From: an uncultured Candidatus Saccharibacteria bacterium
Lineage (GTDB): Bacteria > Patescibacteriota > Minisyncoccia > UBA6257 > 2-01-FULL-56-20
Assembly: GCA_964387675.1 (NCBI GenBank)
Contig: CAYLWL010000003.1
Location: 6,436 to 70,435 of the forward strand
Length of the DNA stretch: 64,000 bases
Direction of reading: 5' to 3'
The notes under the pieces are model-generated. The model was not told where the DNA came from. It searched no databases and saw nothing but the letters and a program-made list of their open reading frames with translations. Both the position numbers and the translations under genes were made by a program. This document shows positions 2,703 to 56,435 of the stretch, piece after piece (positions within the stretch are counted from its first letter, which is position 1; every line of letters begins with the position of its first letter).

Positions 2703-3192
2703 TAGGTGGTAAGTAGTAAGTAGTAGGTGGTAGAATCGAAATATGGCCGAAAAATTGAACATTAAATCCTATAGAGACCTAATCATCTGGCAGAGAACAA
2801 AATCTTCCGCTGTTTTGATATATAAAATAACCGAAAAGTTTCCTACATCCGAGCTTTACGGCATTACGAGCCAAATGCGTCGTGCTGCTGTTTCTATGCC
2901 ATCGAATATCGCAGAGGGATTTAGAAGAAAGTCGGTAAAAGAAAAATTACAATTTTTGCGTATGGCTTACGGATCTGGTGCCGAACTGGAAACTCAACTG
3001 GAAATTAGTCGCGATTTGGGATACTTGAGTGATCAGGATTATAAAAATCTATCTACTGAATTAGACCAGACCATGAAGATGATGAATAGAACAATTAACA
3101 CGCTGGAGAATTAGGTTTGATATAATGAAAGCATCCGGAAACCAATGAAAAAATCAGATTCTACCTACTACCTACTACTTACTACCTACTCG
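2702..3192. mobile_element. Inverted-repeat-bounded cassette carrying a four-helix-bundle gene (MITE-like/IVS-like element)
   Basis: Left arm GTAGGTGGTAAGTAGTAAGTAGTAGGTGGTAGAA (2702-2736). Its reverse complement TTCTACCTACTACCTACTACTTACTACCTAC lies at about 3157-3190. A solo arm copy sits inside uvrC at 57278-57303. Confidence 0.5.
2743..3114 (+). CDS. Four-helix-bundle protein (23S rRNA intervening-sequence protein family; Avd-like fold)
   Basis: 123 aa. Conserved N-terminal motifs L(I)IWQ..., MPSNIAEGF and GSGAELETQLEIS are typical of TIGR02436/PF05635 family proteins. Confidence 0.8.
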   Translation: MAEKLNIKSYRDLIIWQRTKSSAVLIYKITEKFPTSELYGITSQMRRAAVSMPSNIAEGFRRKSVKEKLQFLRMAYGSGAELETQLEISRDLGYLSDQDYKNLSTELDQTMKMMNRTINTLEN

Positions 3193-3963
3193 TCAAGGCG
3201 TGGTTTCACCCTGATCGAGCTCCTCATTTTTGCGGCAATTTTTGCCGGCATCATGATCGCTTTTATATCGATCCTGGTCGTCGTGACGGGCATAGAGGCG
3301 CGCCAGTCGTCGGTGGCCGAAGTGAATCAGCAAAGCCAGTTTCTCCTCCAGCAGATAGAACAGCTCACCGAACGGTCAAGCGTTATCGAATTGCCGGAGA
3401 ATACGGCGACGACCACTCTCATGTTACGGATGCCGTCGCCCTCTGAAGATCCAACCTACCTCACGCTTTCAGACGGGATAGTGTACTTACAGCAAGGCGC
3501 CGGTTCGCAGAATGCTCTTACCTCCAACAAAGTTGTTGTTTCATCGCTCACCTTTACCAAAAAATCCAACGCGCCGGGCCACGATTCGGTTTCCGTATCA
3601 TTCCTTGTGAGCTACAACAGCCAAAGCGTGAAACGGCAATTCTCCCAGACACTGAACACCGCGATCGCGAGGGTCTCGGCGGCCACGTTCGATTCAAACG
3701 TGATTCCTTCCTCGACGGCAACCTACGATCTTGGGGTATCATCCCAAATTTGGAGATCGATCAACAACAAGATTTATTTCAGTGGCTCGAACATAGGCAT
3801 CGGTGTTGTCTCCCCGAATGCTCTTCTCCAAGTGTCCGGCGGAGACGTCTATGTGGATACGGTCGGGAAGGGGATGATAGTACGCGCTCCGGACGGCGGA
3901 TGTTGGCGGATTACGGCCAAAAATGCCGGCGCTTATAATTCTGATTCAGTAGTTTGCCCGTAA
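3145..3963 (+). CDS. Type IV pilin-like protein (prepilin-type N-terminal cleavage/methylation domain)
   Basis: RRGFTLIELLIFAAIFAGIMIAF is a classic prepilin leader (G|FTLIE) plus hydrophobic helix. The annotated N-terminus (MKKSDSTYYLLLTTYSS) is encoded by the right IR arm of the upstream cassette, so the true start is uncertain. Confidence 0.65.
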   Translation: MKKSDSTYYLLLTTYSSRRGFTLIELLIFAAIFAGIMIAFISILVVVTGIEARQSSVAEVNQQSQFLLQQIEQLTERSSVIELPENTATTTLMLRMPSPSEDPTYLTLSDGIVYLQQGAGSQNALTSNKVVVSSLTFTKKSNAPGHDSVSVSFLVSYNSQSVKRQFSQTLNTAIARVSAATFDSNVIPSSTATYDLGVSSQIWRSINNKIYFSGSNIGIGVVSPNALLQVSGGDVYVDTVGKGMIVRAPDGGCWRITAKNAGAYNSDSVVCP

Positions 3964-4022
3964 GAAAAGGTCTGTGGATAACCAGACTTCCAAACGCCGC
4001 GCGAAGTTATACAATAAAAAAG

Positions 4023-4562
4023 ATGGGGTCTAAGAGTAACGTTATCGTAATAGTGGTCGCTGTGGCGGTGATGGCCCTTTTGGTTGTTTTCGGAGTCGTG
4101 TTGAAAAATAAAGGGGGCAACGAAGGGCCTTCTTTGGGGGACTCCGCCGTTTCAAGAGACGTCACCGTCACCAGAGAGCCCGCTCCGGCAAACGTTTTTG
4201 TTCCGAGCGCAGGCGCGAAAAACGTTCCCGCGAACGTCGCTGTCCCCAAAGCGATTTCCAAGAGCGGCCCTCTTAGCGACGCGAGTTATCGCAGTTTTAC
4301 CGTCGCGGCTGACGGCGGAAGGTTTATGCCCGATACCGTGATTGTCAAACAGGGAGATACCGTGGATCTGAATATTACCGCGGTAGACGGGGATTATGAT
4401 TTTACCCAGCCGGATTTCGGGTTCAAGACGGTTATCGCGAAAGCAACCACCCAAAACATTCAATTCCAAGCCACGGCGACCGGTCGATTTGCTTTCTACT
4501 GCTCCCTCTGTGGCGGGCCGTCACAAGGGCCTCTGGGCTACATCGTGGTAGTTCAAAAATAG
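4023..4562 (+). CDS. Membrane-anchored cupredoxin-like domain protein (CuA-like FYCSLCGG motif)
   Basis: The internal ATG at 4023 (MGSKSNVIVIVVAVAVMALLVV, a TM anchor) is the more plausible start than 3954. The C-terminal beta-rich domain ends with FYCSLCGGPSQGPLGYIVV, which resembles cupredoxin/CuA loops but lacks the full ligand set. Confidence 0.4.
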   Translation: MGSKSNVIVIVVAVAVMALLVVFGVVLKNKGGNEGPSLGDSAVSRDVTVTREPAPANVFVPSAGAKNVPANVAVPKAISKSGPLSDASYRSFTVAADGGRFMPDTVIVKQGDTVDLNITAVDGDYDFTQPDFGFKTVIAKATTQNIQFQATATGRFAFYCSLCGGPSQGPLGYIVVVQK

Positions 4563-4589: not shown

Positions 4590-4889
4590 ATGGAGAATAA
4601 GTCTTCAAAAATGACAATTGATAAACTGGGAGAAATGAGCCAGCGGGAGTTTATCGCGATTCGTTCGGAAATGATGGACACGCGCGCAGAACTCAAAGAA
4701 GAGATACTTATATTAAGAGAAGATGTTTCTATTTTGCGTCGTGATATGGAAGCAGGTTTTCAGGGTTTAAGCGTGGGTATGAAAGAAATTATGATCAAAC
4801 TCAACGAAATTCAAGCTGATGTGATTGAAATTCACGATCTCCGCGGCAGGGTTGAGCGGCTGGAAAAGAAAGTCAGTTTATCAAACTAA
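4590..4889 (+). CDS. Hypothetical coiled-coil protein
   Basis: 99 aa and heptad-rich (ELKEEILILREDVSILRRDMEAG...). No family recognised. Confidence 0.4.
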   Translation: MENKSSKMTIDKLGEMSQREFIAIRSEMMDTRAELKEEILILREDVSILRRDMEAGFQGLSVGMKEIMIKLNEIQADVIEIHDLRGRVERLEKKVSLSN

Positions 4890-4922: not shown

Positions 4923-5405
4923 ATGCTTCCTAAAAAAATCTTAATTCTACTCGTTGCCGCTGTCGTCGTAATCCTGGCGTTCGGCATCTGGCTCGGTTCG
5001 CTTATTTTGCGCGAGAAGAAAATTAATCCCGCGGGCTCTTCCCAATACTCCGCCGTGTATCTTACGACAGGCGACATTTACTTCGGCAAGCTTTCCTGGT
5101 TTCCGTATCCGCGGCTGAAGAACGTCTGGTTTTTGCAGAGATCGGTTGGCCAGAATAATCAAGTCCAGCTCGGCATCGGTCAATTCAACAACGCGTTCTG
5201 GAGTCCGGTGGACGAGGTTCGCTTAAACCCAAAGCAGATTATTTTGTGGGCGACTCTGCGGAATGACAGCCAGGTTATCAAAGTGTTCGACAATCCGAGC
5301 TTACTCCAGCAATCTTCTCCTTCCGCTGACGGAAGCGCGCCTCAGATTTCTCCTTCAACGAGCACCTTTAGCGGCCCATCGGGTCAGCCGCCAAGCAGAA
5401 ATTAG
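4923..5405 (+). CDS. Hypothetical membrane-anchored protein with Ser/Pro-rich C-terminus
   Basis: N-terminal TM helix (ILILLVAAVVVILAFGIWLGSLIL) and a low-complexity SP-rich tail. Confidence 0.4.
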   Translation: MLPKKILILLVAAVVVILAFGIWLGSLILREKKINPAGSSQYSAVYLTTGDIYFGKLSWFPYPRLKNVWFLQRSVGQNNQVQLGIGQFNNAFWSPVDEVRLNPKQIILWATLRNDSQVIKVFDNPSLLQQSSPSADGSAPQISPSTSTFSGPSGQPPSRN

Positions 5406-5477
5406 TCCGCCCACCAGGACTTGAACCTGGAACCGTCTCCTTAAGAGGGAGCTGCTCTGCCATTGAGCTATGGGCGG
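5406..5477 (-). tRNA. tRNA-Lys (anticodon CTT)
   Basis: Reverse complement folds as a cloverleaf. Acceptor CCGCCCA/TGGGCGG, D-stem GCTC/GAGC, anticodon loop CTCTTAA (anticodon CTT), T-arm CCAGG-TTCAAGT-CCTGG, discriminator A. No encoded CCA. Confidence 0.75.
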
Positions 5478-5520
5478 AAGATTATTTACTTCTTATATTG
5501 TAGTTTATAGAGCGAGCTTT

Positions 5521-5647
5521 TCTCTTTTCGAGAAGCTATCGGACCCAGCCGCAGCTTGGTCTCCGACCGGAGTCGGAGTGCGGCTGGGGAGATGCAGGCG
5601 CGTTCCGACCGCTGGAGTCGGAACGACGCCGGTTCTCGAAAAGAGAA
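5521..5647. repeat. GC-rich structured element, family D copy A, bounded by 14-bp inverted repeat
   Basis: TCTCTTTTCGAGAA at 5521-5534 pairs with TTCTCGAAAAGAGA at 5634-5647. The core CTTGGTCTCCGACCGGAGTCGGAGTG is shared in reverse orientation with the copy at 43486-43635. Confidence 0.5.
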
Positions 5648-5710
5648 ATGCGAGCGGAGTTATCCACAGCCCTCCCCAACCGATTTGTTATAATAATTCT
5701 AACGTAAGAA

Positions 5711-5950
5711 ATGAGCAAAAGAAACCTCGTCGTCCTTATCGTGGTTGTGGCAGTGGTCGCGGGAGCGCTCTATTGGTACTTTGTAATGAACAAAGGGGCT
5801 TTTGTCGCTCCCGAAGAGGCCGCACCCGCTCCCCAGACATTGGGCGGCGATATTTATGAAAAAAGCCAGAATCCCATTCAGGATAAAGTTCCAACGCTTG
5901 ATCCCGTTGCAAACCCCGTTCAAGGTCTCTATAAAAATCCATTTCAATAG
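5711..5950 (+). CDS. Small membrane protein (hypothetical)
   Basis: 79 aa, N-terminal TM helix (LVVLIVVVAVVAGALYWYFV). Confidence 0.35.
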   Translation: MSKRNLVVLIVVVAVVAGALYWYFVMNKGAFVAPEEAAPAPQTLGGDIYEKSQNPIQDKVPTLDPVANPVQGLYKNPFQ

Positions 5951-5956
5951 AAAACT

Positions 5957-8491
5957 ATGCAAAAGTCCATATCCTTCACAAATGCAAAATTTTGGATAGC
6001 CCTCTTTATCGTAGCGGGAGCTCTTTTGGCGAGCTACGCAATTTTAGCAGTCGCTCACGCGCAAACACAAACGAGCGAGCCGACCGACGAGGACGTCAAA
6101 GCAAGCGGTATCACTTTTCCGGTTCCAGAGCTTGGCAACTGCGGCAGTAAAGACGAATGTCGGAGTTACTGTAACGACCAAAGCAATATGGAGGCGTGTA
6201 TCAGCTTCGCCAAATCGCACGGTTTGATGAACAAAGACGAAGCGGAGCGTGCAGAGAAATTCAAAACGGCGTTGCGGGGAGGAACCACTCCTGGGGGGTG
6301 TACCAATCCCGGCCAGTGCCAGGCGTTCTGCGGTGATGTCAAGAATATGGAGGTGTGCGTCAAGTTTGCGGAAGAGCATGGCGTGAAAGACAAACACATC
6401 GAACAGGCAAAGAAAGTTTTAAACCATATCAAGTCGGGCGGCCAAACGCCGGGAGGGTGCGGTTCCGAACAAAGCTGTAAGCAGTATTGCAGTGATTTCA
6501 GCCATGCCGAAGAATGTTTCGAATTCGCCAAAAAGATCGGGATCGTGCAGGCGCGGGGGCAGGCAGGAGTTCGGGCCGGAGAAAGAGCGGGATTTGAAGA
6601 CGAAGAAATCCCCAACGAGGAGCAGTTCCAAAAATTCATTCAACTCGCGAAAAGCGGCGAGACGCCGGGTGGTTGTAAATCGAAAGATGCTTGCGAGTCC
6701 TATTGTCAAGGCGGAAACCACATGGAAGAATGCGTCGCTTTCGGCGAGAAAGTTGGCTTTGTTTCTGCCGAAGAGGCCCAGATGATGAGAAAGTCCGGCG
6801 GCAAAGGGCCGGGGGGATGCAACAGCCGCGAATCCTGCGAATCTTTCTGTAATGATCCAGCGCATCAAGAAGAGTGTTTCAAGTTCGCTGAAGAGCATGG
6901 ATTTGTGAAGCACGAAGAGGTGCAGAGAACGAAAGAAGGGTTTGTGCGTTTGCGCGCGGGTCTTGAGCAAGCGCCTCCGGAGGTTGCGGAGTGTTTGAAA
7001 GCGGCCGTGGGGGAAAACGTTCTCGACAATATCCAATCCGGACAGATTACTCCGGGTCCCGAAATCGGCAACAGCGTGAAGGGTTGTTTCGATAAGTTTG
7101 GCCACCAGAGCGGTTCTCGCCAGCTCTTCAAGGACGCGCCGCCGGAAGTTTCCACTTGTCTCAAAGAAAAACTGGGGAGTGAGTTTGCAAAGGTGCAATC
7201 AGGGGAGAGCATGCCGAGCCCGGAAACGGCAGACACGCTCCGAGTTTGTTTCCAGCAGGCGCAATTTGAAAAAGGCGGATTCCAGTTTGGCGGCCCGCAA
7301 GGTCAGGGTGACGAGCGGGGTCAACCGCAAGGCGGACAAGGCGGTTTTCCGCCCGCGCCCGGTGAACGAGGTCAAGGTTTTAGCGCTCCTTCAGCAGGAC
7401 AATTCTTGCGGAATGCTCCTCCCGGGGTCTCAACTTGTCTTAAGGAAAAACTTGGCGACAAACTCGAGGCGATACAATCCGGAGGAGAACAGCCGGGTCC
7501 GGAGTTTGGTCAGACGCTAAAATCCTGCTTCCAGGAATTCAATCCTCAAAACGATAGAATGCCGCCTCCTCGTCCCGATGAACAGCGCGGCGGTCAAGGA
7601 GGCGAGGGGAGTGGTTTTCTTCCCGCGCCCGGCGAGCGTGGTCAACAGGGTGGTTTTGAACAAGGCCAAGGGGGCTTCCGGGGAGAAGGACAGTTCGAAC
7701 AAGGCGGCGAACAACCGCTTTTCAACAAGAGGCCGTACCCTCAATCGGTGCCATCATTTAACACGCCATCTCCGTATCCAAGGCCTCCCGTCGGCAGTGA
7801 GCAGTATCCCTCTCCCGCTGGCGGCTACAGTTCAGACCCGACTACTGGTTGCGTTCAAGCCGGCGGAAAGTGGGACGTTGCAACAAAGCATTGTGAGATG
7901 CCAAGCACATCGCCAAGTACAGTTCCCAGCGGCGGCTACAGTTCAGACCCAGCCACCGGTTGCGCTCAAGCAGGTGGAAGGTGGGATACCGCGACAAAAC
8001 ACTGTGAGATGCCAGCGAGCACGACATCGCCGAGTAGCCAACCTTCACCGTCAAGCGGCACTCCTCCGCCAAGCGGCGGTTACAGTTCCGACCCGGCTAC
8101 CGGTTGCGCTCAAGCCGGCGGAACATGGGATACGTCGACGAATTACTGCAAAATGCCGGGGAGCACGTCGCCAACTCCAACGAGCGGCACAACTCAACCG
8201 TCAACGACCGATACGCACAGCTGTCCCTCCGGCCAATACTGGAACGGATCCACTTGTATGAGTTCTACGAATACAAGCGGAGGCACAACATATCCGCAGC
8301 CATCTACGTATGAACAACCATCCACATATCAACAACCATCTTTATATCAACAGCCGACAACTCAATCATACCCAAGCGGCGGCAGTTACACTCCTCCTCC
8401 GTCGGACTCCGGTTCCGGAAGCTATACTCAGCCACCTCCACCGCCCCCGGGAGGAAACTTGTTCCAGATTTTCAAGTGGATAGTGCGATAA
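5957..8491 (+). CDS. Large secreted Cys-rich repeat protein (six 4-Cys ~45-aa repeats, Gly/Gln-rich linker, three 2-Cys GGYSSDPATGC repeats, Pro/Thr/Ser-rich tail)
   Basis: 844 aa with an N-terminal TM/signal (FWIALFIVAGALLASYAILAVAHA). It has six repeats of TPGGCxxxxxCxxYCxDxxxMEECxxFAxxHG, then a low-complexity GQG/PAPGERGQ region, then three repeats of GGYSSDPATGCAQAGGxWDTATKHCEMP. Confidence 0.6.
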   Translation: MQKSISFTNAKFWIALFIVAGALLASYAILAVAHAQTQTSEPTDEDVKASGITFPVPELGNCGSKDECRSYCNDQSNMEACISFAKSHGLMNKDEAERAEKFKTALRGGTTPGGCTNPGQCQAFCGDVKNMEVCVKFAEEHGVKDKHIEQAKKVLNHIKSGGQTPGGCGSEQSCKQYCSDFSHAEECFEFAKKIGIVQARGQAGVRAGERAGFEDEEIPNEEQFQKFIQLAKSGETPGGCKSKDACESYCQGGNHMEECVAFGEKVGFVSAEEAQMMRKSGGKGPGGCNSRESCESFCNDPAHQEECFKFAEEHGFVKHEEVQRTKEGFVRLRAGLEQAPPEVAECLKAAVGENVLDNIQSGQITPGPEIGNSVKGCFDKFGHQSGSRQLFKDAPPEVSTCLKEKLGSEFAKVQSGESMPSPETADTLRVCFQQAQFEKGGFQFGGPQGQGDERGQPQGGQGGFPPAPGERGQGFSAPSAGQFLRNAPPGVSTCLKEKLGDKLEAIQSGGEQPGPEFGQTLKSCFQEFNPQNDRMPPPRPDEQRGGQGGEGSGFLPAPGERGQQGGFEQGQGGFRGEGQFEQGGEQPLFNKRPYPQSVPSFNTPSPYPRPPVGSEQYPSPAGGYSSDPTTGCVQAGGKWDVATKHCEMPSTSPSTVPSGGYSSDPATGCAQAGGRWDTATKHCEMPASTTSPSSQPSPSSGTPPPSGGYSSDPATGCAQAGGTWDTSTNYCKMPGSTSPTPTSGTTQPSTTDTHSCPSGQYWNGSTCMSSTNTSGGTTYPQPSTYEQPSTYQQPSLYQQPTTQSYPSGGSYTPPPSDSGSGSYTQPPPPPPGGNLFQIFKWIVR

Positions 8492-8505
8492 GGAAGATAA
8501 ACCAC

Positions 8506-8535
8506 AAACCGCTCTCGAAGAGAGCGGTTTGTGTG
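8506..8535. terminator. Bidirectional rho-independent terminator between convergent genes
   Basis: Hairpin AAACCGCTCTC-gaa-GAGAGCGGTTT followed by a T-rich tract. A-rich on the opposite side, serving the minus-strand peptidase gene. Confidence 0.5.
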
Positions 8536-10483: not shown

Positions 10484-10556
10484 CGTCCCCGGCAGGAGTC
10501 GAACCCGCAACCTCTTGGTTCGAAGCCAAGCGCTCTATCCATTGAGCTACGGGGAC
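10484..10556 (-). tRNA. tRNA-Arg (anticodon TCG)
   Basis: Reverse-complement cloverleaf. Acceptor GTCCCCG/CGGGGAC, D-stem GCTC/GAGC, anticodon stem CTTGG/CCAAG with loop CTTCGAA (anticodon TCG), T-arm GCGGG-TTCGACT-CCTGC, discriminator G. Confidence 0.75.
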
Positions 10557-52452: not shown

Positions 52453-52819
52453 AAATGAAAACTCGCGGTCTCCAAGAACGGAGCATATTCGCGGCGTTGG
52501 GAATCCTCCTCTTCTTGACTTTCGCGTTCCTTTCTTTTTCCCTCTAATCCAATCTTTTCCGTTATAACATAATATTATATTATAATGGAAAAGAGAAAAA
52601 AGAGAACGAGAAAAAGAATAGAATAAGAGGGACGCATCCGGATGTTCACTGTCCGTTTGCTATAATAGAAGCATGTACCTTTCTGACACCCCTTCGACTC
52701 CGCTCCCTCGACAGAACTAGGGACAAGTCGGGGCAGGCCCTTCGATAGAGCTCGGGGCAAGCCCCTAGGCAATCGCATCTTCATACTATGAAGAAAAGAT
52801 CATCCACAACCATTCCTTC

Positions 52820-52840
52820 GAGAGAGAGAGAGAGAGAGAG
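52820..52840. repeat. (GA)10 dinucleotide microsatellite 8 nt upstream of the likely start codon of the giant fibre gene
   Basis: GAGAGAGAGAGAGAGAGAGAG read directly from the sequence. Confidence 0.9.
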
Positions 52841-52847
52841 TAACACC

Positions 52848-55800
52848 ATGCCCCGACTCCGCTCTCTACAACTCGTTTACCTCGCCTCCTTCCTCCTCTC
52901 TTCATTCCTCTTTGCCCCTCCACTCTTGGCCGCCCCTCCTTCCTCCCCGTATACCCCCGGAGAGACCCTGAATCCCACCTGCTCCCCCGGAGACGCGAAT
53001 TGCACGGTCGTCGCTCCCCCCGCGGGAACCGGCTCCGCGGGACTCCTGACCTACTGGAGCGCCTCCTCCACCGTCTCATCCTCCCTCTCCCTCTTCTGGG
53101 ACAACCCCAACATACGCCTCGGCATCGGCACCTCCCAGCCCTCCTCCACCTTTCACATCATCGCGGGAACGACGGGCGCGACCACCCTGCAACTGATGGG
53201 ACTCCCCAACCAGACCGGGAATCTTCTCACGGTCGGATCATCCTCCGGACAACGCTATTTCACCATCTCGTCCCTCGGACTTGCATCGTCTACCGAGTTT
53301 CGCTCTCCGAGTTCGACGATCGATACCCTCTTCCTTACCTCGGCGTCCTCCACCAACCTCTCCCTCTCCGGCTACGGCCTCTTTCCCACGCTCCTTGCCC
53401 AGAACGCCGTGGGACTCGGCTCTCTTTCCACTTCCACCTCCCTCGTTTTCATCCAGGGGACGCAGGTGGCGTCAACCACACTCAACCTCCGAGGCACAAC
53501 CAACCAAACCGCCAATCTCCTCACGATCGCGAGTTCAACGGGAATCAACTTCTTCACGATTGGCCCAACTGGCCTCGCTTCCTCCACCGAGTTCAGGGCC
53601 AACTCGTCCACCATCGCCTCGCTCTACGATTTCAACGGCAACAAGTACGCCACCTCGAGCGCCTTCACCGCTGGCGTTGACACCCAGCTCTTATTTGGCC
53701 AACTCGGAGGAGGAGCAACCTCGAGCATTGCTTTCACGATCACCACCTCCACCTCCCAACTCCTCTTTTCCGGCTCCAATGTCTCCATCGCTCCGGTCGG
53801 AACCTCCACCTCCCTCGTCTTCCTGCAGGGAAGCCAGATAACATCCACCACGCTCAATATCTTCGGCGCCGCGGCCCAGACCGCGTCTCTCCTCTCCATC
53901 TCCTCCAGCACCGGCATCCCTCTTTTCAACATCAATGCCATAGGCCAAGTAGCCATCGCCACCTCTACCTACCCCTCATCGAGCACCCTGCTGACCATCG
54001 CCTCCTCAAGCCAGATATTCAATATCTCCGCGGGAGGCAACATCATGATTGGGACCTCGACCTCTCCCAATGCCGCGCTTCTGCAGATCGCGACGACCAC
54101 CAATATCTTCACGATCTTGAGCAACGGGAGAGTGGGAATCGGAACCTCGACGCCGGGTTCCGCCCTTGACGTGAAAGGCACCTTGCGTCTGTCGGGTTCC
54201 GCGTCGGGATATGTGGGATTCGCTCCAGCCGCCGCGGCGGGAGCAACCACCTATACCCTCCCTTCCGCCGACGGCTCATCGGGACAAGTCCTTACCACCG
54301 ACGGCTCGGGGACTTTGTCCTGGACGACGAAAGTAGAGGGCACCTCCCAGGACTTCAAAGGACTTTCCTTGAGAACCCATCCCAACGCGAACATCGCCAC
54401 CACCACGGTCTATCTTGACCACGCAGACGAGATCGTGATGGATACCGGGAACCGGGTGGCAACCTGGGACGACCTGTCGGCTGACATCACCGTATCAGGA
54501 GCCGGAGGACTGGATACCGGTTCTGAAGCCGCTTCCACTTGGTATGAGATTTATGCGATACGAAAATCATCTGATGGCACAAAGAATCTCTTGCTTCATA
54601 GGGCCAAGGATTATTTTTTGGATGAGGATTTTTCAACTGGCGATGATCAGTCACAAGGGATTCGGCGCACGACTAATAGTGTTACTTCTGTTGCTCAACA
54701 GTTTGAGGTTGATACTTCCGGGCTTGTTGAATTTGTCGACGTATATCTTCTTCGCGCCGGATCGGTAAGCGGACGGTTGTGGGCCGAGCTCTATGCAGAT
54801 AGCGGAGGAGCGCCAACGGGTTCAGCGCTTGCCACTTCTGACAAAATCGACGCCTCACTTATATCGACTAGTGCCCAATGGATACGTTTGCCGTTCCGTT
54901 CGCCTGTTACATTGAGTGCCACGCCGACAATTTACCATCTTGTGCTGACAGGCGACTGGACACAAAGTGATACGGTAACTATCAGCTGGCGCGCAGACAG
55001 CACATCGCCGACCTATGCTCGCGGATCATTTGAGCGTAAAGAATCTGGCAGTTGGGTAGAATATTCCGATATTGATGTGTTGTTCAAAATCTATGTCACC
55101 CGCAACGACACCTCGGTCACCATGCCGACCGGCTATGACCAGAAAGCGAAGGTGGGGTATGTATATAACGATAGCGGGAGTAACTTTAGCCCATTCGTGG
55201 CCAATGATCGGCGCGTAACCTATCAAACTACGTTCAATACGGGCAGCATCACGGCGACGATTATGACGTTAACCGACGTGTCATCATCACTGCCACCAGT
55301 TGCCGTCAGCGACGTGTTCGGCACGGCAGAGAACAGCGCGGTCAACGATTGGCTGCGTATTCTGGGCGTCCCAGACGGCTATTCGGCGAATGGCTATCCA
55401 ATTTCTGTCCCGACTGCAAATGCCACAGTATTTGCGGGAGGTATCTCAACTGAATATCAAGCGTTATATTTTCAGGTTAGTTCTGGAACTGGAATATTCC
55501 GACTGCGAGGCTACACTTGGGGCTCCACCGGCGGCGCGGACCTGGCTGAAGAATATCTGGTGGATGACGAAAGCATCAACGCCGGAGACATCGTGTCTCT
55601 GACCTCTTTTGGTACCAACTATGTCGAGAGAGCCGCCGCCTCCTCTTCATACCCGGTCCTCGGCATCGTCTCCACCAAGCCGGGCATAGTCCTCAAGGAC
55701 TGGTCATACAGCCCCCGGAATACGAGGAATGTGGCTCTCACCGGCCGCGTCCCGGTCAAGGTTACCGAAGAGAACGGCCCGATCAAGACAGGGGATCGCC

Positions 55801-56435
55801 TCACCCTCTCGGCAACGACCCCCGGCTATGCGATGAAGATGACCGAGCCGGGCCAATCAATAGGTATTGCTATGGAATCGTCGGAGAACAAAGACCCCGA
55901 CGCTACGGTCCCGACGCAAGGATCGGGACAGGTCGGGACGGGCAAAATCCTCGCCTTCATCAATTTGACCTATTGGATACCGGATATATCTGCATCAACA
56001 TCCACCGATGCTTCCGCTTCCACCTCAACTGTTGCATCAACCGACTTCTCACTCGACGGCCTGATGAAATACATCGTGAACAAACTCAAAAATGTTCTGG
56101 AGATCGTCTTCGAGAAAGGACTCCTCAAGGTGGCGCATCTGATTACGGATCTTGTGGAGACGAAAAAGGTTGTGACGGAAGAAGTGGTGACCGAAAAACT
56201 GGAATTGAAAGACGCGGCAACGGGCGGGGTGTATTGCGTCAAGATGCTGAACGGTCAGTTGGCGAGCGTGTCGGGAGGATGCGGGTCAGACGCGCAATCT
56301 TCAACCTCGACGGCAGAATCCGATTCCACTTCCAGCTCTGCCACGAGTTCCGTTTCGGACTCCGACAATTCCGATTCTGCCGCAAGTTCAACCGATTCGA
56401 CGGCCGATACTAACAGCACTTCGACTGAGCCGTAA
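52848..56435 (+). CDS. Giant (~1195 aa) surface fibre-like protein with Ser/Thr-rich repeats and acidic Ser-rich C-terminus
   Basis: The start at MPRLRSLQLVYLASFLLSSFLFAPPLLAAP (signal peptide) is preferred over the upstream ATG at 52788. It has repeated ...LLTIASSTGINFFTIGPTGLASSTEFR... modules, motifs shared with the 50098 protein, and a C-terminus of SDSTSSSATSSVSDSD. Confidence 0.55.
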   Translation: MPRLRSLQLVYLASFLLSSFLFAPPLLAAPPSSPYTPGETLNPTCSPGDANCTVVAPPAGTGSAGLLTYWSASSTVSSSLSLFWDNPNIRLGIGTSQPSSTFHIIAGTTGATTLQLMGLPNQTGNLLTVGSSSGQRYFTISSLGLASSTEFRSPSSTIDTLFLTSASSTNLSLSGYGLFPTLLAQNAVGLGSLSTSTSLVFIQGTQVASTTLNLRGTTNQTANLLTIASSTGINFFTIGPTGLASSTEFRANSSTIASLYDFNGNKYATSSAFTAGVDTQLLFGQLGGGATSSIAFTITTSTSQLLFSGSNVSIAPVGTSTSLVFLQGSQITSTTLNIFGAAAQTASLLSISSSTGIPLFNINAIGQVAIATSTYPSSSTLLTIASSSQIFNISAGGNIMIGTSTSPNAALLQIATTTNIFTILSNGRVGIGTSTPGSALDVKGTLRLSGSASGYVGFAPAAAAGATTYTLPSADGSSGQVLTTDGSGTLSWTTKVEGTSQDFKGLSLRTHPNANIATTTVYLDHADEIVMDTGNRVATWDDLSADITVSGAGGLDTGSEAASTWYEIYAIRKSSDGTKNLLLHRAKDYFLDEDFSTGDDQSQGIRRTTNSVTSVAQQFEVDTSGLVEFVDVYLLRAGSVSGRLWAELYADSGGAPTGSALATSDKIDASLISTSAQWIRLPFRSPVTLSATPTIYHLVLTGDWTQSDTVTISWRADSTSPTYARGSFERKESGSWVEYSDIDVLFKIYVTRNDTSVTMPTGYDQKAKVGYVYNDSGSNFSPFVANDRRVTYQTTFNTGSITATIMTLTDVSSSLPPVAVSDVFGTAENSAVNDWLRILGVPDGYSANGYPISVPTANATVFAGGISTEYQALYFQVSSGTGIFRLRGYTWGSTGGADLAEEYLVDDESINAGDIVSLTSFGTNYVERAAASSSYPVLGIVSTKPGIVLKDWSYSPRNTRNVALTGRVPVKVTEENGPIKTGDRLTLSATTPGYAMKMTEPGQSIGIAMESSENKDPDATVPTQGSGQVGTGKILAFINLTYWIPDISASTSTDASASTSTVASTDFSLDGLMKYIVNKLKNVLEIVFEKGLLKVAHLITDLVETKKVVTEEVVTEKLELKDAATGGVYCVKMLNGQLASVSGGCGSDAQSSTSTAESDSTSSSATSSVSDSDNSDSAASSTDSTADTNSTSTEP

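Follow-up and report, generated by a model that had tools for sequence, protein, structure and literature searches.

A cysteine-rich exported repeat protein of Parcubacteria is encoded in a conserved gene pair with a small membrane-anchored partner

What role could a long, Cys-rich and apparently exported repeat protein play in the Parcubacteria, a large and almost entirely uncultured share of bacterial diversity with tiny genomes and a presumed symbiotic way of life? The question is raised by a gene at positions 5957..8491 of the plus strand of a 64-kb stretch of contig CAYLWL010000003.1 (64,000 nucleotides (nt); hereafter the window), which encodes 844 amino acids (aa), among them 34 Cys. 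Proteins that build the Parcubacterial envelope or contact other cells are, to our knowledge, essentially unknown. A first-pass annotation of the window had described the protein as secreted, built from two types of Cys-rich repeats, and a candidate for host interaction or adhesion. Our analysis places it in a gene pair found in many Parcubacterial lineages, and we assign a probability of about 0.5 to the reading that it is a surface protein composed of head, stalk and tail, which works with its co-encoded partner in the envelope, the pair being conserved throughout Parcubacteria. It probably fulfils a conserved function, in the envelope or as a scaffold, and not one in strain-variable adhesion.

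The frame from ATG to stop is real (the coordinates include the stop codon), and the protein is 100% identical to HY434_02255, deposited at NCBI from a metagenome-assembled genome (MAG) of Candidatus Liptonbacteria (Parcubacteria group, Patescibacteria). This bears out the earlier impression of an organism resembling those of the candidate phyla radiation (CPR). In the deposited annotation (P0001, 821 aa), the start lies 23 residues downstream and cuts into the signal peptide, most of which is thereby lost (window 5957-6025); judged by its relatives, the ATG at 5957 suits the family alignment better. The predicted signal peptide (aa 1-35, 5957..6061; this and all following features of the protein are on the plus strand) consists of a K-containing n-region, a long h-region and an AHA↓Q signal-peptidase-type site, with a hydrophobic helix at aa 8-30 in the structure model, in line with the N-terminal signal proposed before. 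A site of the type [AVSTG]xA↓Q is present in 93 of 111 homologues, while a twin-arginine translocation (Tat) motif (RRxFL-like) was found in two of the 111 and is absent from the query. This pattern points to export by the Sec route as an unfolded chain, and the claim of secretion thereby gains support. A Tat-exported cofactor protein was rejected on the same ground, the query being without a twin-arginine motif.

Behind the signal peptide lies an array of five units of a type that we call A, with the consensus PGGC-x5-C-x2-YC-x8-C-x2-FA. The four-Cys module had been recognized in the first-pass annotation, and its spacing of C-x5-C-x3-C-x8-C holds, but six copies had been counted where we count five, with first Cys at aa 62, 115, 168, 240 and 288. 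Unit 1 (aa 54-106, 6116..6274; Cys 62, 68, 72 and 81) begins with the conserved FPVPELGNC and is followed by unit 2 (aa 107-159, 6275..6433; Cys 115, 121, 125 and 134). Unit 3 (aa 160-233, 6434..6655; Cys 168, 174, 178 and 187) carries a disordered insert, aa 199-216, before its third helix. Unit 4 (aa 234-279, 6656..6793; Cys 240, 246, 250 and 259) is the one retained intact in a paralogous family described below, and unit 5 (aa 280-337, 6794..6967; Cys 288, 294, 298 and 307) has a long C-terminal helix. Of the repeat types, A and a type that we call C had been seen earlier; a third, B, had been overlooked. It occurs in three copies of about 45 aa with two Cys each (APPEVxxC-x29/30-C): B unit 1 (aa 338-382, 6968..7102; Cys 346 and 377), modelled as three short helices, B unit 2 (aa 393-437, 7133..7267; Cys 401 and 431) and B unit 3 (aa 486-530, 7412..7546; Cys 494 and 524). 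Within each repeat type, unit-versus-unit local alignment scores lie 12-29 standard deviations above shuffled controls, and the repeats are thus far beyond chance. Kinship between A and B was rejected (z<=2.3 in the shuffled-control scores; hhalign probability 0.5%).

Directly upstream, at 5711..5950 on the same strand, a gene encodes a 79-aa protein with an N-terminal transmembrane helix and a Cys-free ectodomain of about 50 aa; its stop lies 6 nt ahead of the ATG of the large gene. This partner contains the motif LGxxIYEKxQNPIQDKVP...NPVQGLYKNPFQ, its C-terminal sequence reading ...LGGDIYEKSQNPIQDKVP...NPVQGLYKNPFQ, and a Pfam scan of it gave no match. Homologous small open reading frames (ORFs) stand directly upstream of the relatives at loci L002 and L003, as in the window. 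When all ORFs adjoining the large gene at 84 loci were clustered by BLAST, the partner proved to be the only strongly conserved neighbour: it was present at 67 of the 84, in each case co-oriented with the large gene and separated from it by a median of 8 nt. A start-independent search, which asked for a transmembrane-anchored ORF with at least two Asn-Pro (NP) motifs and an end of the NP[FYLIW] type, found it at all 82 evaluable loci; another two are cut by contig ends. Among the partner sequences, the transmembrane helix is present in 69 of 69 and Cys is absent from 66 of 69; the ectodomain has a median length of 62 aa, and the consensus is LGxx[IL]YEKxxNPxx[DE]K[LV]P[ED]..NP..NP[FIL]xxxYKNPF[EQ]. 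A word-indexed search with the 79-aa partner returned three proteins only, and its distribution was therefore taken from the DNA of the loci.

The pair is bounded upstream by a tRNA gene on the minus strand (5406-5477), which overlaps a spurious 129-aa ORF (5470..5859). Downstream, a terminator-like hairpin of 14 bp (8503..8533), GC-rich and matched on both strands, lies between convergent genes. With an opposite-strand tRNA on one side and the hairpin on the other, the pair is therefore a self-contained two-gene unit. The genes for recG, an M50 protease, S12 (rpsL) and EF-G (fusA) are neighbours at 13-20 loci, which reflects core-genome synteny.

At least 572 homologues were found at E<=1e-3, the top 120 all at E<=1e-146; none carries a functional name, and all are called "hypothetical". 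Those with a named source come from Liptonbacteria, Colwellbacteria, Jorgensenbacteria, Lloydbacteria and unclassified Parcubacteria or Patescibacteria MAGs. A scan of one genome per species of GTDB matched 342 stretches, of which the best 80 loci were taken; these belong to 80 different assemblies, one locus each, and add Kaiser-, Nomura-, Niyogi-, Sung-, Harrison-, Brenner-, Yanofsky- and Wildermuthbacteria. Third-party annotation (TPA) MAGs titled 'uncultured Candidatus Saccharibacteria bacterium' contribute about 40% of the related loci; because their proteins are 50-60% identical to the Liptonbacteria ones, this label is probably generic rather than a true placement.

Across this range, the head of the protein hardly changes its layout. 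Exactly five A units are present in 110 of the top 120 homologues, and in an alignment of 88 sequences all 20 A-unit Cys are invariant, at an A-region identity to the query of 46-72%. Units at the same position in different proteins are 52-62% identical and those at different positions 34-48%; the five-unit array was therefore fixed before the lineages diverged. The number of B units varies from 0 to 6 among the top 120, and the stalk, with a family-wide composition of 16% P, 11.5% G, 9% Q and 8% S, ranges from 7 to 365 aa. The query shows the features that define this so far unnamed Parcubacterial family, which we call A5-Bn: a signal peptide, five orthologous A units with 20 invariant Cys, one or more B units, and a partner with an Asn-Pro-Phe (NPF) tail encoded upstream. 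One sub-branch (loci L063, L071, L077, L080 and L081, for example in Sungiibacteriota and Parcubacteria Gr01) is extended at the N-terminus, where an additional domain of about 170-190 aa precedes A unit 1. It has 4-7 A-type matches and a partner whose C-terminus reads ...NPLDRANPFKYxNPLR.

An AlphaFold2 model of the A region, built with the family alignment, is confident (mean predicted local distance difference test (pLDDT) 89.1; predicted template modelling score 0.78) and all-helical, with three helices per unit. In a modelled unit, the loop ahead of helix 1 carries the first Cys (C1), helix 1 carries C2 and C3 at a distance of one turn, and helix 2 carries C4. In the full-length model, the A region reaches a pLDDT of 90-97 and the B units, with three short helices each, 81-94; the linkers and the stalk are disordered, as is more than 40% of the chain overall. 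The A unit had been likened to a small disulfide knot. That likeness does not hold: in the model, the A unit is a three-helix unit of about 50 aa, five of which pack into one confident helical array.

Comparison with known families returned nothing for the large protein. A Pfam scan of the whole chain gave a best E-value of 0.07, short of the cutoffs; NCBIfam (E<=10), PADLOC and PHROGs left it unmatched, the latter two results leading us to reject a link to defence systems or phages; and a profile of the whole region had no match among PDB sequences. Single-unit profiles of A, B and C, searched against PDB sequences in the manner of HHpred, found nothing better than E=0.1, and fold comparison (Foldseek against PDB, and BFVD) gave no match reaching E<0.9. 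In the absence of matches in curated families and the PDB, the units belong to no described family, as the first-pass annotation had supposed, and the repeats are new at the level of both family and fold. Literature searches turned up no description of the A/B/C-repeat family. Two modules that had been mentioned earlier as examples of familiar domains can be set aside: an EGF-like domain, for which there was no Pfam match and which has six Cys in about 40 aa and a beta-hairpin where the A units have four Cys and are all-helical, and an anaphylatoxin-like (ANATO) domain, a six-Cys helical bundle to which Pfam, PDB sequences and PDB folds gave no match. A PF25052 (AtDEF-like) label on two homologues is spurious, being below threshold (24.2 versus a cutoff of 25 bits) and spanning the signal peptide and the first Cys cluster.

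How the Cys residues are used is indicated by a paralogous family (P0125, P0126, P0128, P0130, P0164 and others; named sources Magasanikbacteria, Paceibacter and Patescibacteria) of large proteins of 900-1,500 aa, which are helical, Cys-rich and exported and contain one intact A-type unit. The family aligns to the A region over 214 columns (hhalign probability 97.5%, E=6e-12). Its unit aligned to A4 keeps all four Cys, whereas in the counterparts of A2 and A3 just C2 and C4 remain (31 of 31), C1 and C3 being absent, and one of these counterparts retains the C-x12-C spacing; the unit aligned to A1 has two Cys, in an ambiguous part of the alignment. Since the Cys are lost in pairs and the remaining pair is invariant, two disulfide staples per A unit are favoured over a four-ligand metal site. 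The loss pattern suggests the connectivity C1-C3 and C2-C4, and the placement of the helices in the model agrees with this. With exactly two Cys apiece, B and C units cannot make a tetrahedral metal site. The Cys count is even in 112 of 120 listed family proteins, a set that includes the database entry of the query itself. The alternative of a Cys4 metal module, for which loss as a set of four would be expected, is disfavoured, as the A2 and A3 counterparts hold C2 and C4 alone. An MdbA-like oxidoreductase plus VKOR is reportedly enriched in CPR (bioRxiv 10.1101/335083). Export, even and pairwise Cys and an oxidizing machinery in the lineage together are the marks of a disulfide-stapled extracytoplasmic class, to which the protein would belong.

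The paralogous family also repeats the gene arrangement. In four of four members looked up, the large protein has its own upstream transmembrane-anchored partner with three or four NPF motifs and the C-terminus ...ANPFQxxNPLEGVxANPFxxxKKxLNPF[EQA]; these partners (L084 4702-4968, L085 2671-2988, L086 524-838 and L088 2705-2980) stand directly upstream of P0125, P0164, P0128 and P0130, respectively. The pairing of a large protein with an NPF partner is therefore a recurrent two-gene system. For one member of the paralogous family (P0183; family 2), a precomputed assignment to PF27023 exists; this very recent entry, absent from the Pfam copy used, may cover part of the family.

The second half of the 844-aa protein is of a different make. 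Low-complexity linkers rich in Gly, Gln and Pro exist as described earlier, but they lie between and after the B units and not straight after the A units: linker 1 (aa 438-485, 7268..7411) is disordered, with a pLDDT below 50, and linker 2 (aa 531-619, 7547..7813), the start of the stalk, is disordered at a pLDDT of 30-40. Then follow the three GGYSSDPxTGC-x13-C units that the first-pass annotation had found: C unit 1 (aa 620-649, 7814..7903; GGYSSDPTTGC-x13-C), C unit 2 (aa 657-686, 7925..8014) and C unit 3 (aa 705-734, 8069..8158). Behind them stands a fourth, differing element, the mini-module CPSGQYWNGSTC (aa 754-769, 8216..8263, the motif itself at aa 756-767; Cys 756 and 767), which recurs in other proteins. 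The C units are modelled as small hairpins at low confidence, with paired strands in C unit 3 and CPSGQYWNGSTC at a pLDDT of 55-65; in C unit 3, a beta-hairpin closed by two Cys is predicted (strands 723-725 and 730-732, pLDDT about 65), and the mini-module too is a predicted beta-hairpin. The tail had been called PT/S-rich. A low-complexity region rich in S, T, Q, Y and P is indeed present (aa 770-830, 8264..8446), with 6-aa repeats QPSTY(E/Q), but the extreme C-terminus is a conserved amphipathic tail, GGNLFQIFKWIVR (aa 831-844, about 13-14 residues, 8447..8488), modelled as a helix at 835-843. The hexapeptides are encoded by an 18-nt tandem repeat of 3.6 copies (window 8288-8352).

Both C unit and tail extend beyond the family. 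When 1.84 billion representative proteins were searched exhaustively with the C region, 58 matched, two of them in the A5 family. The others are exported Cys-rich proteins of up to 1,718 aa, which have signal peptides ending in AxAQT, 1-11 copies of C-x2-[AG]GG-x-W-x4-6-[YF]C and of a CPSGQYWNGSxC module, and a tail of this type at the C-terminus; PG_binding_1, CARDB or VirB-type domains occur in some of them. One group among them is the paralogous family described above, which was found in this way. In a cluster look-up of these proteins, one weak outlier was in Cysteiniphilum. The tail follows the pattern [LI][LF]xx[ILF][LIF]x[LF][LF]x[RK]-COOH behind a P/S/T/G-rich stretch (window 8447-8488; C-termini of P0002-P0217) and is common to several unrelated families of exported proteins. 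Under a stringent definition, the proportion of proteins with the tail is 46% for family 1, 48% for the remaining C-unit proteins and 78% for family 2, compared with 0.9% for control ORFs from the same loci (n=779), an enrichment of about 100-fold (Fisher p=7e-29). It is transmembrane-like in 4 of 184 cases, ends in R or K in 97 of 184, and has a median helical hydrophobic moment of 1.19. C unit and tail are thus shuffled modules of a set of exported Patescibacterial proteins, and the tail may be a new signal for envelope attachment or sorting. Known signals were considered and rejected. An LPXTG sortase substrate does not fit, with no LPXTG or other sortase motif in the sequence, no match to an NCBIfam sorting domain and a tail that is rarely transmembrane-like; for the exosortase, archaeosortase and rhombosortase signals (PEP-CTERM, PGF-CTERM and GlyGly-CTERM), which combine a signature motif with a transmembrane helix of about 17-20 aa and an Arg-rich cluster, no NCBIfam match was obtained at E<=10, and the tail is about 14 aa long, with charged residues and a single terminal R or K. 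The sole resemblance to GlyGly-CTERM is a GG directly before the tail in the query and some homologues.

From these elements, the following picture of the favoured head-stalk-tail protein can be drawn. Two disulfides (C1-C3 and C2-C4) would staple each A unit and a single one each B and C unit, all formed extracellularly by machinery of the MdbA/VKOR type, in which CPR are reportedly enriched. The amphipathic tail would hold the mature protein at the outer face of the membrane, in the manner of PBP5, and the stalk would project the head outward. There, the helical head might bind the extended NP-motif peptide of the partner, as TPR (tetratricopeptide repeat), Sel1 and armadillo proteins bind linear peptides, yielding a stoichiometric envelope complex.

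Several points weigh against this picture. Binding between head and partner is a candidate interaction drawn by analogy, and attachment of the tail to the membrane is suggested by likeness to PBP5. The stringent tail occurs in only about half of family 1, and some family members end in other Cys modules instead. The disulfide connectivity depends on an alignment that is ambiguous at A1. No MdbA, VKOR or Dsb gene was found in the 64-kb window, where the scanned CxxC ORFs are Adk, Map, RecO and a tRNA synthetase, and literature searches for the family turned up no expression or proteomic record. A wider generalization is more tentative still: in Parcubacteria and related Patescibacteria, the NP/NPF motifs of dedicated small membrane proteins could dock the disulfide-stapled helical-repeat heads of a superfamily that has at least two paralogous branches, and a short amphipathic C-terminal signal, not recognized before, could attach a whole set of exported proteins to the envelope, in a lineage-specific form of surface display in which the A5-Bn/NPF pair would be a core envelope complex of these ultra-small cells.

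Among the alternatives, the one that survives best is the host interaction proposed in the first-pass annotation, in which the protein is an attachment adhesin, its head binds a surface molecule of the host cell that carries the episymbiont, and the partner is a mere accessory. Export to the surface stands, and the extracellular layout of head, stalk and anchor would suit an adhesin. C modules and tail are also found on proteins with CARDB, PG_binding_1 or VirB-type domains, all surface contexts, the stalk length (7-365 aa) and the number of B units (0-6) vary, and for another CPR lineage, a part in attachment has been proposed for large Cys-rich extracellular proteins (PMC4736985). A fast-evolving adhesin would, however, hardly be expected to keep its head so unusually conserved (46-72%, with invariant Cys and a fixed five-unit array) in numerous candidate phyla whose hosts presumably differ, with each of the best 80 loci from a separate assembly. 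Nor would it be expected in core-genome synteny near recG, the M50 protease and rpsL-fusA, and the strict pairing with a self-encoded partner suggests a self ligand. Strong conservation, orthologous units, core synteny and the self-encoded partner therefore favour a conserved envelope role over a variable adhesin, and we regard host attachment, which could involve a conserved host ligand, as unlikely.

A component of a surface (S-) layer or lattice is a still more doubtful reading. By analogy with SlaA and SlaB of Sulfolobales, the large protein might form or support an outer layer, with the small protein as its membrane stalk. The two are indeed co-encoded and strictly paired as a membrane anchor and a large exported protein, their distribution and conservation are those of core genes, and the tail, common to several exported families, is a possible shared envelope-attachment signal. 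S-layer proteins, however, usually contain few Cys and much beta structure, while the A5 head is all-helical in the model and the protein has 34 Cys; moreover, over 40% of the chain is predicted to be disordered, and the literature search gave no record of abundance or proteomic detection.

Least probable is an extracellular metal-binding or redox protein in which the A-unit Cys hold Zn, Cu or an Fe-S cluster or perform thiol exchange, a possibility also raised earlier: the four invariant Cys of each A unit at fixed spacing, the frequent His in the C3-C4 interval and in the 'HG' that follows C4, and a membrane-anchored cupredoxin-like protein encoded 1.4 kb upstream would agree with it, but the paralogue loses its Cys in twos with the remaining pair invariant, B and C units hold two Cys each, export by Sec and not Tat signal peptides makes a pre-assembled cofactor unlikely, His is not invariant across the A units, the cupredoxin gene is not a conserved neighbour, and the 844-aa protein contains no CxxC or CxxCH motif.

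The remaining surroundings of the pair in the window are varied. At 3145-3963, a type IV pilin-like protein is encoded (N-terminal GFTLIELL, weak N_methyl match), which is not a conserved neighbour of the family. The cupredoxin-like protein (3954-4562; PF13473, E=1.7e-8), 1.4 kb upstream, was rejected as a functional clue because it is not conserved beside homologues. Two unannotated ORFs, one for a 160-aa transmembrane-anchored protein (4923-5405) and one for a 99-aa coiled-coil-like protein (4590-4889), have no Pfam match and are not conserved neighbours either. A second minus-strand tRNA gene is found at 10484-10556. Farther downstream, a 1,215-aa ORF (52788-56435) that has a hydrophobic segment at its N-terminus, carries S/T-rich repeats and lacks a Pfam match possibly encodes another large surface protein; the GC content of the window peaks here, at 0.58, with a negative GC skew.

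For the annotation of CPR genomes, A, B and C are three unannotated domain types suited to new Pfam entries. Newly defined here are a gene pair across many Parcubacterial lineages, adjacent in every evaluable locus; a confident helical-repeat model; a candidate interaction between NPF tail and A5 head; and a candidate C-terminal envelope-attachment signal. The results of most interest lie beyond 5957..8491 itself, in the NPF-tail partner that is present without exception, the second pair of the paralogous family and the tail common to several families, and the A5-Bn/NPF pair could act as a marker or handle for studies of the CPR cell surface. Should the pair turn out to be merely another conserved hypothetical surface protein, the practical gain would be smaller and lie in a corrected annotation (start codon, domains and operon) for thousands of database entries.

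Known systems with which the protein can be compared include the large Cys-rich extracellular proteins of Peregrinibacteria, which have been proposed to mediate attachment (PMC4736985). They too are CPR proteins with a signal peptide, many Cys and a proposed cell-surface role, and they are without functional annotation. They differ in forming a strain-variable multi-gene cluster of proteins of about 1,655 aa with weak similarity to Myxococcus Cys-rich repeats (PMC4736985), whereas the A5 family is conserved, occurs once per assembly among the best 80 and has its own repeats and partner; the likeness is one of description.

In its overall layout, the protein resembles Gram-positive wall-spanning proteins, which likewise have a signal peptide, an N-terminal head, a long disordered stalk rich in P, G, S, T and Q and a conserved C-terminal element. 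Those, however, end in a sortase motif, a 20-aa transmembrane helix and a basic cluster, in contrast to the amphipathic end of about 14 aa with a single R or K seen here. For this end, a comparison is offered by PBP5 and PBP6 of E. coli, exported DD-carboxypeptidases that lose their signal peptide and use a short C-terminal amphipathic helix as a membrane anchor. What they share with the 844-aa protein is export together with a terminal amphipathic helix, predicted here at aa 835-843; there is no sequence kinship and no enzyme domain in the 844-aa protein, and membrane binding is proposed here by analogy.

The A units themselves recall the twin-Cx3C and twin-Cx9C (CHCH) helical hairpins of the mitochondrial intermembrane space, short helix-turn-helix units with two disulfides and Cys at positions i and i+4 of one helix, the disulfides being formed after translocation of the unfolded chain, as we infer for the A units. 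The spacing C-x5-C-x3-C-x8-C, with one Cys in the preceding loop and a predicted C1-C3/C2-C4 connectivity, nevertheless differs from the two inter-helix staples of CHCH proteins, and the A units are bacterial, extracellular and arranged five in tandem. A further comparison is with the Sel1 proteins, including the Helicobacter cysteine-rich proteins (Hcp), which are secreted and consist of tandem helical units of about 36-50 aa that form a solenoid, with disulfide-stapled helices within each unit (a feature inferred here) and a scaffold on which ligands or peptides can bind. The Sel1 protein 6ork_B was among the weak top fold matches of Foldseek, at insignificant values (E=4.0-6.9, TM-score 0.18-0.22), and the 844-aa protein had no match to the Sel1 profile (PF08238) in the Pfam scan at E<=10. 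In contrast to the two helices and two Cys of a Sel1/Hcp unit, the A unit has three modelled helices and four Cys, follows a consensus of its own and is accompanied by a dedicated partner gene.

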